Source: Verrucomicrobiota bacterium
Lineage (GTDB): Bacteria > Verrucomicrobiota > Verrucomicrobiia > Limisphaerales > CANJXF01
NCBI GenBank assembly: GCA_038214755.1
Contig: JBBQRQ010000004.1
Location: 40,369-104,368, forward strand
Reading direction: 5' to 3'
DNA: 64,000 nt
The translations under genes were made by a program, and so were the position numbers. How positions within the stretch are numbered: position 1 is the first letter of the stretch; each line of letters starts with the position of its first letter. Shown here piece after piece: positions 25,339 through 32,755 of the stretch. Under the pieces are notes generated by a model, which was given only the letters and a program-made list of their open reading frames with translations, was not told the DNA's origin and ran no database searches.

Positions 25339-25375
25339 TTGACGGTATGGCTGGAGTGCCATACAAAGTATGGCA
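25339..25375 (+). promoter_or_regulatory. vapBC promoter with an overlapping palindromic operator
   Basis: TTGACG-N17-TACAAA-N7-ATG; TGCCATAC-aaa-GTATGGCA at 25357-25375. Confidence 0.7.
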
Positions 25376-25638
25376 TGAAAATGACGATGCATATCGATGA
25401 TGAGTTGTTAGCCAGAGTCATGGACGTCACCGGCGCACACAGCAAGACGAACGCGATCGATTTGGCGTTAAGAGAAATGGACAGAAGAGCCAAATTAACC
25501 GAATTGGCTTCCAAAGGATTGGGGATGACCGCGAGTGAGTTGAGGGAATCCTTTGATCCTGCTTCCTATCTGGAAACCTCTTACGCTTTAGCGGAAAAAC
25601 CCGTGACTTATGGCCGTAAGCCCCGTTCTCGTAGATAG
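25375..25638 (+). CDS. vapB: VapB-family antitoxin (RHH)
   Basis: MKMTMHIDDELL...SKTNAIDLALRE; overlaps the PIN gene. Confidence 0.85.
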   Translation: MKMTMHIDDELLARVMDVTGAHSKTNAIDLALREMDRRAKLTELASKGLGMTASELRESFDPASYLETSYALAEKPVTYGRKPRSRR

Positions 25639-26005
25639 CAGTTTTTACATTCGCGCCGCCCGGGAAGGGCGCGACCCCCTGCGGCTCCTGGCGCCAATTG
25701 CCGCCATGCGAGACGTGGCTGTGTGCGGCGTCATCCGCTGTGAGGTGGGGCGCGGCGTGAAGAACCCAAAAGTGTTGGATCGATACAATGCTTTTTGGGA
25801 CGTAATGATTTACGTGTCCACCGACAATCGGCTTTGGGATAACGTCGAGAAAACGCTTTGGCAACTGGATCGGCAGGGAATTATTCTGCCACTACCTGAC
25901 GTCGTCATTGGTTGTTGCGCCATGCGGATCGGCGCGGTGGTGCTGACCCACGACGATCATTTTTACCAAATTCCCGGAGTGCGAGCCACAGACCGAATCG
26001 ACTGA
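25610..26005 (+). CDS. vapC: VapC PIN-domain toxin
   Basis: VLVDSS, E, LPDVVI, LTHDDHF acidic PIN residues. Confidence 0.88.
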   Translation: MAVSPVLVDSSFYIRAAREGRDPLRLLAPIAAMRDVAVCGVIRCEVGRGVKNPKVLDRYNAFWDVMIYVSTDNRLWDNVEKTLWQLDRQGIILPLPDVVIGCCAMRIGAVVLTHDDHFYQIPGVRATDRID

Positions 26006-26022
26006 GTTGATTTGGGATCTGC

Positions 26023-26071
26023 TGGAGAAATTTCACTCGGTGATTTTCAAGGCAAGACGAGCGAACTGTTC
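26023..26071. repeat. 49-bp imperfect direct repeat, copy 1
   Basis: 41/49 ungapped identity with 26893-26941. Confidence 0.85.
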
Positions 26072-26143
26072 CCAGCGGAATTGTCCGCCAACAAATGATT
26101 TTGCGTCTTTGACTGGGAAACGTAATTCGACTAAAAGTTCCTT

Positions 26144-26413
26144 ATGAATGCCGACAGTGCTGTGACCGAAGTGGAAATATGGGATCGCGCCATCCGTCCG
26201 GAAGCGGGCGATTTTTCCGCAGCAGCATCGCGGGATTTGTTGCGCTTGCGATTGTCGGACACGGACGCCAAACGGGTTCAGGAACTTTCAGCCAAGGCAA
26301 ATGAAGGCGGGTTATCGGAACTCGAAGCCGAAGAACTTGATCACTATCTCAACGTCGGTCGCGCGCTGGAATTCATCAAAGCCAAAGCCCGTCTCTCCCT
26401 GAAGGCTGCTTGA
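26144..26413 (+). CDS. Small helical protein, putative antitoxin partner of the HNH gene
   Basis: RVQELSAKANEGGLSELEAEELDHY; TTGACT-N17-TAAAAG-N6-ATG upstream. Confidence 0.75.
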   Translation: MNADSAVTEVEIWDRAIRPEAGDFSAAASRDLLRLRLSDTDAKRVQELSAKANEGGLSELEAEELDHYLNVGRALEFIKAKARLSLKAA

Positions 26414-26420
26414 CCGCCAA

Positions 26421-26825
26421 ATGAACGCGGCGTTTCGAAAAGCCGTTCGGGATCGGGCGCTGCAACGTTGCGAGTATTGTCGTTTTCCTGAGCAATTCGC
26501 CGAACTTCCGTTTCACTTCGACCATATCATCGCCCAACAACACGGCGGAAAATCGGAATTGGAAAACCTGGCGTTCGCTTGTTGTTATTGTAATCGCTAC
26601 AAAGGTCCAAATCTTTCGGGTCTCGATCCGGATTCAACGAAAGTGGTTCCCCTTTTTCATCCGCGACAGAATTCCTGGGGCGAGCACTTCTCCTGGACCG
26701 GCGCGTTTATCGACGGCAAAACCGCCATTGGCCGCGCAACGATTCAGGCATTGCGATTGAACCGCCCCGACGCAATTGCCGTGCGACAACTTTTGATTCG
26801 GGCAGGAGATTACGGTGTGAGTTAG
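26421..26825 (+). CDS. HNH endonuclease
   Basis: RCEYC...FDHIIA..HGG...NLAFACCYCNRYKG, LFHPR. Confidence 0.92.
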   Translation: MNAAFRKAVRDRALQRCEYCRFPEQFAELPFHFDHIIAQQHGGKSELENLAFACCYCNRYKGPNLSGLDPDSTKVVPLFHPRQNSWGEHFSWTGAFIDGKTAIGRATIQALRLNRPDAIAVRQLLIRAGDYGVS

Positions 26826-26992: not shown

Positions 26993-28309
26993 TTACGCGT
27001 CGAGCTTCACTTCTGCTTCTTCAAAATTCTGAAAGGCTTCAACCAGGTCCACCATGAACCGTGCCGCGCTGCCGCCGTCGATCACCCGGTGGTCATAGGA
27101 TAAAGTAATCGGTAAAATCAAACGCGGTTCGATTTTCTTTTCCTTCGTCACGATTGGTTTGAACGCCCCTTTGCCCATTCCTAAAATTGCCACATCCGGT
27201 TTGTTCACGATCGGCGTGAAGTGTCCGCCGCCAAATGCGCCTTGATTGGAGATCGTGAAACTGCCGCCCTGCATTTCTTCCGTGGAAATTTTTCGGTCGC
27301 GCGCTTTCGCGGCGAGTTCGCTCAACTCTTTGGAAATTTGCGCCAAATCTTTTTTATCCACGTCGCGAATGACGGGAACCATCAAGCCCTGCTCGGTTTC
27401 AACGGCGACGCCGATGTGAAAATATTCTTTGAAAATAATTTCCTGCGAACTTTCATCGAGACTCGTGTTGAAAATGGGATGTTTTTTTAAAGTGTTCACC
27501 ACGGCTTTCACGGCGAAAGAAGTCACCGTGAGTTTGGCCCCTTTTTTCTCGTAGGCATCGGCGTATTTTTTCCGAAGCTCCATGATGTTCGTCAAATCAA
27601 CGTCATCAAACTGCGTGACATGCGGAATCGAATTCCAATTCTCGGTCATGCGTTGCGCAATGACTTTACGCAACTCGGACATCGGTCGTTTGTAAATGGA
27701 ACCGAATCGGGAAAAATCAATTTGCGGCGCGGCTTTGCCCGGAGTTTTTTGCGCGTCGGGCGCGGAAACATTTTTTTGTTTCGCAGCGCGCTGCAAGTTT
27801 TGGATGAACGTTTTTAGATCGGCCAAAATAATTCTGCCGCCGCCTTCGCTGCCGCGAACTTTGCGCAAATCAATTCCCAAATCCTGCGCCAGCCGCCGCA
27901 GGGCAGGGGACGCGGGCGGAGGAAATTTCCCCGTGTATTCGAATTCTTCTTCGGGCGCCTCCTCAACTTCTTCGCCTTCTTCTCCCTTGTTTTTTTCCTG
28001 GCGCTCGGCGGGTTTTTTCGCGGGAGCTTTTCCGGGCGAGGCCTTTTTTGGCGCGGAAGCGGCGGGAGCTTCGGCAACGCCGCCCGCCAACGAAAGAATC
28101 GGTGAACCGACGGAAATTTTCTGTCCCTCTTGAACGATGATTTTGGAAACTTGTCCGGCGGCGCTCGATGAAATCGGGGTCACGGCTTTGCCCGTTTCAA
28201 GTTCGATAATGGTTTGGCCTTTGGTGATTTGATCACCTTCCTTGACGAGAATGGTCACGACCGTTCCCGCGTCGGCGCCTTCACCGAGTGGAGGTAATTT
28301 TACGTCCAT
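26993..28309 (-). CDS. aceF: Dihydrolipoamide acetyltransferase (E2), single lipoyl domain
   Basis: ELETGKA lipoyl motif, ASPALRRLA E3/E1-binding domain, LSYDHRVIDG. Confidence 0.93.
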   Translation of the reverse strand: MDVKLPPLGEGADAGTVVTILVKEGDQITKGQTIIELETGKAVTPISSSAAGQVSKIIVQEGQKISVGSPILSLAGGVAEAPAASAPKKASPGKAPAKKPAERQEKNKGEEGEEVEEAPEEEFEYTGKFPPPASPALRRLAQDLGIDLRKVRGSEGGGRIILADLKTFIQNLQRAAKQKNVSAPDAQKTPGKAAPQIDFSRFGSIYKRPMSELRKVIAQRMTENWNSIPHVTQFDDVDLTNIMELRKKYADAYEKKGAKLTVTSFAVKAVVNTLKKHPIFNTSLDESSQEIIFKEYFHIGVAVETEQGLMVPVIRDVDKKDLAQISKELSELAAKARDRKISTEEMQGGSFTISNQGAFGGGHFTPIVNKPDVAILGMGKGAFKPIVTKEKKIEPRLILPITLSYDHRVIDGGSAARFMVDLVEAFQNFEEAEVKLDA

Positions 28310-28323
28310 ATTTTAATAAGTTT

Positions 28324-28355
28324 TAACCACGGATGAACACGGATGAACACGGATA
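28324..28355. repeat. Left 32-bp arm of (GGATGAACAC)n decamer repeats
   Basis: taaccacggatgaacacggatgaacacggata; reverse complement of 28761-28792 at 31/32. Confidence 0.95.
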
Positions 28356-28362
28356 AAAAAAG

Positions 28363-28773
28363 TCATAAGACGATTCGTTCCCACTGCAGCCTCGCGTGTT
28401 TAAAATTCAGAATCAGACCCACCCGGACCTTCGCAATTCGTAAATAATTCATCATCTGCCCGCGTTCGTGGTCGCTAATTCGTTCGATAACTTTCGCGTC
28501 CACAATAACAGTCTCGTAAGCGATGAGATCAGGAATGAATTTCCCCACCATCCGGCCTTTGTAAGAAACATCGAAGTTGCGTTGCTGGTGGTGCGGAATT
28601 CCTTGTAAAGTAAATTCAACAACCAGAGAATTTTCGTAACATTTTTCACCCAAACCGTGGCCAATTCCATTTAGCACTTCGAAGGCGCATCCCAGAATGG
28701 AATGGGTCTCTTCTTTCAGCAAGAGTTTGGAACTGACGCCATGAAGCAGGTCCACTTGTGTATCCGTGTTCAT
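28363..28773 (-). CDS. GxxExxY protein (PD-(D/E)XK nuclease-like)
   Basis: GHGLGEKCYENSL, FIPDLI, IVDAK, QMMNYL, GLILNF. Confidence 0.92.
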   Translation of the reverse strand: MNTDTQVDLLHGVSSKLLLKEETHSILGCAFEVLNGIGHGLGEKCYENSLVVEFTLQGIPHHQQRNFDVSYKGRMVGKFIPDLIAYETVIVDAKVIERISDHERGQMMNYLRIAKVRVGLILNFKHARLQWERIVL

Positions 28774-28792
28774 CTGTGTTCATCCGTGGTTA
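28761..28792. repeat. Right 32-bp arm; contains the aceE stop and the GxxExxY start codon
   Basis: tatccgtgttcatctgtgttcatccgtggtta. Confidence 0.95.
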
Positions 28793-31363
28793 GCTCACTG
28801 AAAGAATTTCGGGAAAAATCTTTTCGGGATTCACGCCCAAATCTTTAATCGCATGGGCGACAATTTGTTTTTCAATCGCGCCTGACTTTGCCAACGCCCA
28901 TAACGTGGCGATCACTGTCGCCTCGGCATCCACTTCAAAAAATCTTCGCAACGCCTGCCGCGTATCACTGCGACCGAACCCGTCTGTTCCCAAAGTCGTT
29001 AAGCCACCGGGAACCCATTGTTGGACCTGATCGGGCACCATTTTCATGGAATCAGAAACGGCGATGAATGGACCTTTTTCATTGGCAAGCAAATTTTCGA
29101 GGTAAGATTTTTTCTGTGGCTCGATTGGATGAAGCATATTCCATCGCTCGACTTTCAACGCGTCGTTGCGCAACGATTTGTAATTCGTCGCGCTCCAAAC
29201 ATCCGCCGACACGTCGTAACGCTCCGCCAAAATTTCCTGCGCTTTCAAAGCAGAGCGAATGATCACGCCGCTCCCGAAAATTTGCGCCTTGTGTTTTTTG
29301 CCGTCGAGACCCGCCTGAAATTTATACAACCCTTTTAAAATCCCTTCCTCCACGCCTTCCGGCAGGGCGGGCATTTGATAGTCTTCGTTGTAAAGCGTGA
29401 TGTAATAAAAAATTTCCTCACCCTTTTCATACATGCGCTTCAAGCCGTCGTGAACGATGACCGCCGTTTCAAAATCAAAAGCAGGATCGTAGGCCAAAAG
29501 ATTTGGCACCGTGCTCGCCATGAGCAAGCTGTGGCCGTCCTCGTGTTGAAGACCTTCGCCGTTGAGCGTCGTGCGGCCGTACGTTGCGCCCAGTAAAAAT
29601 CCTTTCGTGCGGCTGTCGGCCGCGAGCCAGATTTGATCGCCGACGCGCTGAAAACCGAACATCGAATAAAAAATATAAAACGGAATCATGTTCACGCCGT
29701 GGTTGGCGTAAGAAGTTCCCGCCGCCACGAATGAAGAAATGGAGCCCGCTTCGTTGATCCCTTCTTCGAGAATTTGTCCATCGATCGCCTCTCTGAAATA
29801 GGCCGCCGTGCCTGCATCGACGGGGTCATACAATTGTCCTTTGGACGAATAAATTCCGAACTCGGCGAACATCGTGTCCATGCCGAACGTGCGCGCTTCG
29901 TCGGGAATGATTGGAACAACATTGCGGCCAATATTTTTATCGCGCAGCAACGCAACCAGAGTTTGCGTGAAACCTTTCGTCGTCGAGCCGACCCGCGTCG
30001 GTCCAGAGCCTTTCAGCGCGTAGGAGAAACTGCTCAGCGGCGGGATCATCAACGGCGGCGCTTTGACAACGCGTTTCGGAATTGGGCCGCCCAGTTTTTT
30101 CCGCCGCTCCAAAAGATATTTGATGACGTGCGAATCGGATGAGGGACGATAGAAAGGATACTCCGCGATCTCTTCGTCGCTGATGGGAATATCGAAACGA
30201 GTGCGAAAATCGCGCAACTCTTTCTCGTTCATTTTTTTCTGCTGATGCGAAATGTTGCGCCCTTCGCCCGCTTCGCCGAGGCCGTAGCCCTTGACCGTTT
30301 TGGCGAGGATAACCGTCGGTGAACCTTTGTGTTCCACCGCCGCCTGGTAGGCGGCGAAAACTTTTTGCGGATCGTGGCCGCCGCGCGTGAGCTTGCGCAA
30401 TTCCTCGTCGGTCATGTCATTGACGAGTTCGAGCAGCTCGGGATATTTTCCAAAAAAATGGCGGCGAATATAACTGCCCGGCTCGACGGTGTACTTTTGA
30501 TAATCTCCGTCCACACACTCTTCCATTCGCTTGACGAGGAGGCCGGTCTCATCTTTGGCCAGCAGAGCGTCCCAATTGGATCCCCAAATAACTTTGATGA
30601 CGTTCCAGCCCGCGCCGCGAAACGCGCCTTCGAGTTCTTGAATAATTTTTCCGTTGCCGCGAACCGGGCCGTCGAGACGTTGCAAATTGCAATTCACCAC
30701 CCAAATCAAATTGTCCAACTTCTCACGCGAAGCCAGCGTGATGGCGCCGAGACTTTCCGGTTCATCGCTTTCGCCGTCGCCCATGAACATCCAAATCTTC
30801 GGCTCGTTTTCTTTCACTAAAATGCCGCGCGCCTGGAGGTAACGAATGAAGCGCGCTTGATAGAGTGACATGATCGGGCCGAGACCCATCGAGACCGTGG
30901 GAAACTGCCAAAAGTCCGGCATCAAATACGGATGAGGATAAGACGAAAGCCCGCCGCCCTCGGCCAATTCCTGGCGAAAATGTTGCAAATGTTTTTCCGT
31001 CAAACGGCCTTCGAGAAAGGAGCGCGCATAATTTCCCGGAGTGGCGTGGCCTTGAAAATAAATTAAATCCGCCGGCCGTTCGCCCTCGCTCCCGCGGAAA
31101 AAATGGTTGTAGCCAATTTCGTAAAGCGTCGCGCACGACGCAAAACTGGAAATGTGTCCGCCGAGGCCATGCCCCTTGGACTCGCCGTTGACGACCATCG
31201 CCATCGCGTTCCATCTGATGATGCTTTTGATGCGTCGCTCCGTGTCGCGGTCGCCGGGAAACGTCGGCTCATCTTCCGGCGGAATGGTGTTGAGGTATGG
31301 CGTGCGAATCGGATCGCTGTCCGTGTGCGAGGTGATGTCGATGTCGCGTCTCTTGGGTTTCAC
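28790..31363 (-). CDS. aceE: Pyruvate dehydrogenase E1, homodimeric type
   Basis: TPYLNTI, GGHISSFAS, FPTVSMGLGP, GDGESDEPES, GEGLQHEDG; GTG start at 31363 inferred. Confidence 0.95.
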   Translation of the reverse strand: MKPKRRDIDITSHTDSDPIRTPYLNTIPPEDEPTFPGDRDTERRIKSIIRWNAMAMVVNGESKGHGLGGHISSFASCATLYEIGYNHFFRGSEGERPADLIYFQGHATPGNYARSFLEGRLTEKHLQHFRQELAEGGGLSSYPHPYLMPDFWQFPTVSMGLGPIMSLYQARFIRYLQARGILVKENEPKIWMFMGDGESDEPESLGAITLASREKLDNLIWVVNCNLQRLDGPVRGNGKIIQELEGAFRGAGWNVIKVIWGSNWDALLAKDETGLLVKRMEECVDGDYQKYTVEPGSYIRRHFFGKYPELLELVNDMTDEELRKLTRGGHDPQKVFAAYQAAVEHKGSPTVILAKTVKGYGLGEAGEGRNISHQQKKMNEKELRDFRTRFDIPISDEEIAEYPFYRPSSDSHVIKYLLERRKKLGGPIPKRVVKAPPLMIPPLSSFSYALKGSGPTRVGSTTKGFTQTLVALLRDKNIGRNVVPIIPDEARTFGMDTMFAEFGIYSSKGQLYDPVDAGTAAYFREAIDGQILEEGINEAGSISSFVAAGTSYANHGVNMIPFYIFYSMFGFQRVGDQIWLAADSRTKGFLLGATYGRTTLNGEGLQHEDGHSLLMASTVPNLLAYDPAFDFETAVIVHDGLKRMYEKGEEIFYYITLYNEDYQMPALPEGVEEGILKGLYKFQAGLDGKKHKAQIFGSGVIIRSALKAQEILAERYDVSADVWSATNYKSLRNDALKVERWNMLHPIEPQKKSYLENLLANEKGPFIAVSDSMKMVPDQVQQWVPGGLTTLGTDGFGRSDTRQALRRFFEVDAEATVIATLWALAKSGAIEKQIVAHAIKDLGVNPEKIFPEILSVS

Positions 31364-31534
31364 TGTGAAAATCTGCAATCGCCCGGCAAATTTCGTGGCG
31401 AGCAAGGCAGAGTTGTAAATTGGACAACCGAGTCAGCCAACTTATTTTTTGGGAATTCTTTTTCTTTTCGCTCTTAGTTTTGTTGGGAATGGAAATTACC
31501 ATTGGCAGTACGATAAAAACGAATCAACCACTCA

Positions 31535-32248: not shown

Positions 32249-32403
32249 AAACACGGAGAAAAAAATGACTGCCTCCCAAAGCGCAACCAAACACTTCAAG
32301 AGGCAGCCAGGTTTTTCCCCCAAACAGGATTGATCTTCTGTGGCAAAAATTTTTCTGCCATCAGGGTGTCTCCGTTTTTTTCTTCCGGCAGACACCGGGG
32401 TTT

Positions 32404-32668
32404 AAATCCGAATTCCGAAATCCGAGACCCGAAAGAAATCCGAAGACCGAAAGTGCCGCGGCATACGGTGGGTGGCAAAGTACTTTTCTGACTGGCGGCT
32501 GGAAGCCGCCGCAATCCCGCGCGCGGGACTGGAAGCGTGCGCTACAGTTCGTAGCGCAAGCACCCTTGCCTGCAAGTTACTGAGGCTGCCAGCTTCGTGC
32601 CGGAAAGTTATTTTTCGTATTCGGATTTCGGACTTCTTTCGGATTTCGGGTATTCGGATTTCGGATTT
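32404..32668. repeat. Inverted AAATCCG heptamer arms enclosing degenerate GTAG-type REP units
   Basis: Arms at 32404-32451 and 32612-32668; inner gcgctac-agttc-gtagcgc. Confidence 0.85.
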
Positions 32669-32755
32669 CAGCTTAATGACCGAACACGCCCCGACATTTT
32701 CCCCGCGGCATTGAAGTTAGTTGAATTCCCCGACGCCCTTCGCCATTGTCGTTTC

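Follow-up and report, generated by a model that had tools for sequence, protein, structure and literature searches.

A GxxExxY gene between inverted arms of phased 7-base motifs at an aceE-aceF junction: a candidate gene-carrying member of a hairpin-ended DNA repeat family

A GxxExxY cassette of 480 bp that lies between aceE and aceF is an insertion, and most relatives from the same genus carry the empty junction. We give even chances to the reading that this insert belongs to a family of hairpin-ended DNA repeats as its gene-carrying member, in a system similar to REPIN/RAYT but relying on a different enzyme. The argument draws on the history of the junction, the grammar of the repeat arms at related genes, the many arm pairs that stand without a gene, and the modelled fold of the encoded protein.

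Layout and history of the aceE-aceF insertion

In the window, by which we mean the whole stretch of 64,000 nucleotides that was analysed, aceE, the GxxExxY gene and aceF share the minus strand. The upstream host gene, aceE (pyruvate dehydrogenase E1; 28790..31405, with a putative start from the longest ORF), ends at 28790; the 136-aa GxxExxY gene occupies 28363..28773 on the minus strand and matches TIGR04256 and PF13366; and the downstream host gene, an aceF-type dihydrolipoyllysine acetyltransferase E2 (26993..28309), starts at 28309 and has as its best match TIGR01348, below the cut-off of that model. Arm 1, upstream (28761..28792, minus), has the aceE stop codon TAA as its initial three bases, overlapping an AAC, followed by three 7-base motifs at 28788-28782, 28778-28772 and 28768-28762 (minus), and within it lie the in-frame GxxExxY ATG at 28773 and a second, out-of-frame ATG. 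Arm 2, downstream (28324..28355, minus), is an inverted copy identical to arm 1 at 31 of 32 positions, and is separated from the aceF ATG by an A/T-rich spacer of 14 nt (28310..28323, minus). The original prediction had described exactly this arrangement, with a 31/32 arm match, the aceE stop and the GxxExxY start inside the upstream arm and arm 2 ending 14 nt before aceF, and both direct comparison and the coordinates agree with it. Its account of each arm as about three GGATGAACAC units captured the three repeats at a 10-bp period; the unit is better written as AAC plus three CRCRRAT motifs separated by 3-nt linkers.

The sole mismatch between the arms reads as A.C in the mRNA; the opposite strand has G.U there. 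A repeat search extended the arms to 37 nt at 92% identity with 395 nt between them, and their local alignment scored 59, compared with at most 17 in 20 shuffles; as a control for arm pairing, a score of 30 was reached by 1 of 400 random genomic windows. The GxxExxY gene has a GC content of 46%, versus 52-53% in its neighbours. An Rfam search of the locus returned no above-threshold match, and promoter and terminator scans stayed close to chance level.

Other repeats and small genes populate the surroundings. At 32400-32670 an inverted 7-mer-repeat pair encloses GTAG-type hairpins, and the pair lies just 5' of, or overlaps, the start of an ORF that we take to be glucose-6-phosphate dehydrogenase-like. 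In the interval separating aceF from lpd, the opposite strand carries, at 25339-26825, a VapC-like gene (match below cut-off) together with its probable antitoxin, an ORF of 89 aa and another small one that is HNH-like. Over its full length (1-64000) the window contains 18 inverted-repeat pairs, mostly REP doublets of the GTAG/GGAG type, and 999 inverted pairs of at least 22 nt were listed for the whole genome.

Among 30 aceF loci that we fetched, aceE was adjacent in 16 and the cassette was present in two (G000 and G005); G008 was added afterwards, and none of our conclusions draws on the unpublished genome G009. Five of eight same-genus junctions are empty, with a spacer of 4 nt in G001, G003, G004 and G008 and of 7 nt in G007, so that the insertion with an empty allele that had been foreseen was recovered by aligning the junctions of relatives. 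G002 carries an unlike insert of 69 nt at this junction, and a search of G006 found no aceF match. The final 4 nt of the 14-nt spacer are the entire spacer of the empty allele, whereas the remaining 10 nt arrived with the cassette, and G005 has a similar 10 nt. No clear target-site duplication was seen at the compared junctions, which lie in A/T runs and come from distant species (dS 0.8-1.7). Another site yielded a second clean empty/filled pair, and G001 also has a cassette with an internal deletion.

The same cassette sits at the same junction in G005, a species that is not the sister of G000. Trees of aceE plus aceF, from DNA and from protein, group G005 with the empty G001 as its sister at bootstrap values of 99 and 98, with weak support for the deeper branches, implying either repeated clean losses or entry at the same site, twice or by recombination. 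Between G000 and G005, dS is 0.92 for the cassette gene versus 1.38 for aceF and 1.47 for aceE, a lower value that rests on 136 codons and leans toward transfer. The dN of the cassette gene in the same comparison is 0.085, which shows purifying selection, and its dN/dS near 0.09 is a poor fit with a permanently hidden start codon, as had been proposed for the cargo.

Arm grammar at related genes and pairing in the mRNA

We collected 82 loci of the close clade and scored 79, leaving out three as broken or partial; an arm was called when at least 23 of the 26 positions of the pattern agreed, and shuffles reached no more than 19. Both arms are present at 65 of these 79 genes, from several phyla, in line with the expectation that collected GxxExxY loci would have flanking inverted repeats, and an in-frame ATG lies within arm 1 at 52 of the 65. 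The AAC and the 7-mers are almost invariant while the linkers differ freely between arms, which is the pattern expected for binding sites along one face of a helix. Other GxxExxY clades have other periodic arms, found at both other GxxExxY genes of G000 and at 20 of 30 further loci (two pairs of which overlap). On a quick protein tree the arm labels cluster (43 changes versus 73.9 in shuffles); as kin share labels, this reflects linkage rather than co-evolution.

Grouped by downstream neighbour, the 65 armed loci resolve into 35 distinct sites, and this diversity of neighbours rules out a fixed partner gene. Recurrent sites lie before thrS (15 loci), a class I aminoacyl-tRNA synthetase gene (6), argG (5) and alaS (4), and further ones adjoin purA, pgi and restriction-modification genes. 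The longest-lasting cassette sites are directly 5' of aminoacyl-tRNA synthetase genes (the 15 loci within L062-L091, and the L061 and L093 groups). At 20 of 21 sites (one against) the gene runs parallel to co-directional neighbours, as called from long ORFs, an orientation that indicates expression by read-through. Spacing is also tight: in counts over non-independent loci, the upstream stop codon lies no more than 11 nt from arm 1 in 24 of 46 loci, and the downstream start follows arm 2 by 11-24 nt in 29 of 49.

Some features of individual loci stand apart from this pattern. In L113, an HEARO RNA (RF02033, 146 bits; 2381-2592) lies directly 3' of a GxxExxY gene that has arm 1 and lacks arm 2, and G144, G110, G074 and G162 have ORFs (260-300 aa) in which two weak GxxExxY-like domains occur, those examined being armless. 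The upstream out-of-frame ATG of arm 1 seemed at first to be lost (15/29 versus 77/94, P 0.003), but the difference shrank to 4/7 versus 7/7 at independent sites and was set aside.

Persistence at fixed sites (15 loci at thrS, six at the class I synthetase gene, five at argG and four at alaS), purifying selection on the gene and phased motifs would all suit a domesticated DNA-binding system, in which the arms serve as operator or chromosome-organising sites for an autoregulating protein with a host function and the insertions are old and passive. We consider this improbable, as the cassette is patchy within one genus, its sites differ between species, decayed copies are frequent and 113 of 151 genomes of the order are without a close match.

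The original prediction centred on a helix formed by the arms in the mRNA. A 581-nt mRNA segment is indeed predicted to fold with its arms paired (z = -4.73; 0 of 100 shuffles were as stable), with a 30-nt arm duplex at -50.8 kcal/mol (mean over loci, -43 kcal/mol), and the helix probably forms. What did not hold up is selection for pairing. Linker complementarity is no better than in swaps, whether counted over all loci (69/130 versus 73.2 and 61/130 versus 58.5 for the two linkers) or per site (39/70 versus 40.4 and 27/70 versus 26.9), and an arm's own partner beats a swapped one in only 38 of 65 loci. For 47 gene-less pairs, linker 1 is above expectation (63/94 versus 51.9) and linker 2 below it (36 versus 44.6). 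Mismatches on the mRNA strand over all loci comprise 57 G.U and 90 A.C; counted per site (35 sites), G.U wobbles number 26 on the mRNA strand versus 49 on the other, and the antisense duplex is the stabler of the two in 41 loci, the mRNA-sense duplex in 18. The wobble bias is flat (17 versus 14) in 11 gene-less pairs of known direction, and motif variants are weakly mirrored in register (9 versus 4 out of register, permutation P 0.04). Judged from these substitution patterns, the arm sequence appears to resemble an array of recognition sites more than a selected RNA stem. The proposal of a polarity-neutral element fares similarly: placement mostly between co-directional genes, with the stop tight on arm 1 and the start 11-24 nt off, is upheld, but arms selected for pairing are not.

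These data bear most directly on an mRNA intervening sequence, in which RNase III or the encoded protein would excise the loop of ~430 nt and preserve aceE-aceF expression. Such excision would make sense of the predicted helix, of the close stop and start spacing and of the weak in-register mirroring; the genome encodes an RNase III; and the size and stem resemble those of a 428-nt intervening sequence with a 28-bp stem in 23S rRNA, as far as PMC4990558 describes it. We nevertheless judge it unlikely, given linkers that pair no better than swaps, the excess of stabler antisense duplexes and the many arms with no partner nearby. Moreover, in the rRNA cases covered by that description (PMC4990558), RNase III cutting leaves the RNA fragmented, without re-joining, so that a cut here would split aceE from aceF.

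Gene-less arms, the predicted nuclease and a proposed mechanism

The original prediction counted arms that occur independently of GxxExxY genes as evidence against it, and such arms do occur: G000 has 42 arms at no more than one mismatch versus one GxxExxY gene of the same clade, so most stand without a gene. Of its 21 listed arm pairs, several have loops containing other, nested hairpin elements. Three gene-less pairs on different contigs, with unalike flanks, have loops that are 77-88% alike, a similarity that fades ~10-20 nt beyond the arms; gene-less pairs are thus copied as whole units. We rejected the idea that they are deletion products of the aceE-aceF GxxExxY gene, to which their loops show no homology. 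One gene-less pair occupies a junction at which, in five relatives, the stop and start codons abut or overlap, and G001 and G008 retain solo arms at a further cassette site. At the intercistronic site G000:C22:39100-39705 and the orthologous junctions L496-L500, six same-genus genomes have five different fillers: besides a GxxExxY cassette, these are a pair of 8-mer arms without a gene, GTAG hairpins of two kinds and a small ORF unrelated to the others.

Starting from arms rather than genes gave a similar picture. Among 80 of at least 123 metagenome loci, one arm pair encloses the gene, 32 are gene-less pairs, 32 arms are unpaired and 15 loci are too short; among 80 of at least 144 viral loci, the corresponding numbers are 0, 15, 64 and 1. 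Decayed partners are visible by eye for some unpaired arms. Several viral contigs (L175-L178 with L219, all one contig; L180-L182 with L203; L184-L186) carry several unpaired arms on one strand only, often near gene starts and with GxxExxY absent within 800 nt; these same-strand arms are possibly regulatory or protein-binding sites. Arms can also be translated in frame, as one near 801-830 of L357 lies inside an open frame that, from its motif, is presumably a radical-SAM MoaA-type gene.

Across the order, 38 of 151 genomes have a close gene (a match at E <= 1e-40), and arms number a median of 33 in these carriers (n=38) versus 3 in the genomes without it (n=113). At least five extra arms occur in 33 of 38 carriers versus 51 of 113 non-carriers, and carriers have more arms in 17 of 23 within-family contrasts (P 0.035). 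Part of this link is general repeat load, because an unrelated control 7-mer repeat is also gene-associated (11/38 carriers versus 13/113 non-carriers; odds ratio 3.1, versus 8.0 for arms). Genomes with at most one arm have a close gene in 0 of 54 cases, a figure that is partly circular since the gene itself brings two arms. Twenty-four of 50 arm-rich genomes lack a close gene, and 15 of 16 of those tested have some other GxxExxY.

Genes of other families in G000 are likewise armed. Inverted arms stand at five of the 10 Y1 transposase hits examined and at eight of nine genes for four-helix-bundle proteins (TIGR02436; L426-L434, on contigs C148, C5, C43, C55, C157, C49, C2 and C64), all outside rRNA and mostly with arms of 7-8-bp periodicity; the four-helix-bundle proteins, a family that occurs in 23S rRNA intervening sequences, are not known to be nucleases. 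Passive carriage of the GxxExxY gene is conceivable because these four-helix-bundle genes have similar arms. It would mean that the hairpin repeats are independent, spread by host recombination, replication slippage or another enzyme acting in trans, and that GxxExxY is cargo in a self-closing hairpin that is harmless within operons. The armed four-helix-bundle and Y1 genes agree with this, as do the gene's presence in 1 of 80 metagenome and 0 of 80 viral arm-first loci (among the matches listed), the single intergenic site with five fillers and the missing close gene in nearly half of the arm-rich genomes. We hold cargo status to be rather unlikely all the same: arm type follows protein clade, both arms are kept at 65 of 79 genes across phyla, and no 10-bp-phased arm was found within 500 nt of the 10 Y1 or nine four-helix-bundle hits (best 20 of 26 positions).

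The protein itself offers a candidate enzyme. It matches TIGR04256 at 121 bits (cut-off 35) and PF13366 at 113 bits (cut-off 22), and these matches and its modelled fold agree with the GxxExxY identity and PD-(D/E)XK-like nature assigned to it at the outset. Relatives number 5,583 at E <= 1e-10 and 7,925 cluster representatives at E <= 0.001; protein-atlas matches are PF13366 clusters only, plasmid matches amount to six distant records, and searches of annotated phages and, at the sequence level, of the PDB found none. We discarded a model from a shallow alignment (pLDDT 44) and used a deeper one of 121 sequences (pLDDT 89.5). Its structural matches (Foldseek, VIA-align) are nearly all PD-(D/E)XK enzymes, including lambda-type exonucleases, the best being Cas4 SSO0001 (Z 8.4, rmsd 3.1, 98 aligned), followed by 3ijm (Z 7.8) and Hjc (Z 7.0); such scores speak to the fold rather than to the closest function. 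E43, E47, D82, D/E92, K94, Q106 and Y110 are conserved in the 121 sequences, with the catalytic-type positions D82 in 113, D/E92 in 119 and K94 in 112, and we take D82, D92-x-K94 and Q106-x3-Y110 to be the PD-(D/E)XK nuclease motif residues. The 136-aa protein is thus a predicted PD-(D/E)XK nuclease with a Cas4-like fold. PF13366 is tabulated as a family of unknown function in the portion of PMC3424549 that lists it, and a passing remark in the literature has a GxxExxY gene adjoining a reverse transcriptase.

For the hairpin-ended repeat family that we prefer, these elements suggest the following mechanism. The predicted nuclease likely binds each arm as DNA, at its three turn-spaced 7-base motifs, and likely cuts there, spreading gene-less arm pairs in trans in the manner proposed for RAYT enzymes and REPINs. 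The gene would have no promoter of its own and be read from the host transcript, its expression probably low because the arms would pair once arm 2 is transcribed. The gene-bearing copy would move rarely and persist long beside housekeeping genes, with gene-less pairs turning over fast, and the mRNA helix would be a tolerated by-product that keeps the downstream start free rather than the purpose of the arms. Mobilisation by the encoded nuclease is what we infer from this, and both its activity and its part in the spread are predictions. We put forward only tentatively that GxxExxY proteins at large serve as the enzymes for a class of mobile DNA that has gone unrecognised, each being a minimal Cas4/Hjc-like nuclease that reads three phased 7-base sites at either end and places copies of hairpin-ended units in the gaps between cistrons.

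Relation to known systems

We found no description of an armed GxxExxY repeat family in the open-licence PMC or bioRxiv literature, and the family is apparently undescribed. The arms give, for each clade, a concrete candidate substrate for the PF13366 family, so that its function becomes directly testable, and the aceE-aceF locus contributes a clean empty/filled comparison with a species tree. If the protein spreads gene-less pairs, it would be a second, chemically different solution of the REPIN/RAYT type and would supply very small sequence-specific nucleases; if a mobile-DNA class exists, it would provide a role for a large nuclease family of unknown function and explain a common bacterial and phage repeat; and if the transcript were cut at the arms, the cassette would be the mRNA counterpart of rRNA intervening sequences.

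The protein shares its core fold with Cas4, RecB-like, lambda-exonuclease and Hjc PD-(D/E)XK enzymes (PDB 4ic1, 3ijm, 6m9k and 1gef), from which it differs as a minimal 136-aa domain at ~12-20% identity. MITEs and IS elements pair a gene-bearing element with short gene-less ones that have the same terminal inverted repeats. The present family likewise accompanies its gene-bearing element with short gene-less elements sharing its ends; unlike them, it has no DDE transposase and no clear target-site duplication, its gene-less loops are unrelated to the gene, and there are one or two gene copies per genome.

With the 23S rRNA intervening sequences that encode an S23p/four-helix-bundle ORF, as characterised in the relevant part of PMC4990558, the cassette has in common a length of ~430-480 nt, a small ORF in the loop, a stem of ~30 bp (here predicted) and a patchy distribution. 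It differs in sitting between protein-coding genes (no rRNA match in the 20 related loci scanned, of 80), in encoding another protein and in having a stem built of repeats with many gene-less copies. TIRtrons and their TIRYT genes, in the outline given by Di Nocera et al. (2013, PMC3733652), similarly place a gene directly between long terminal inverted repeats, some of which form families; TIRYT is a tyrosine transposase, whereas here PF13366 is combined with periodic repeats.

The closest organisational likeness is to REPIN-RAYT, or the REPtron, to the extent set out in Bertels and Rainey (2011, PMC3116915): a low-copy, repeat-flanked gene with many gene-less extragenic inverted doublets, some of them nested, several types of repeat that each adjoin a gene of their own, and mostly vertical inheritance of the gene. 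Two differences from that description (PMC3116915) concern the arms and the enzyme. Each arm here is a phased tandem array of 7-mers that lacks both an internal palindrome and a GTAG foot, and single arms, folding at 0 to -0.2 kcal/mol (z 0.6 to 1.2), have no stem-loop of their own; the enzyme is a predicted PD-(D/E)XK protein that matches PF13366 only, rather than an HUH/Y1 tyrosine transposase.
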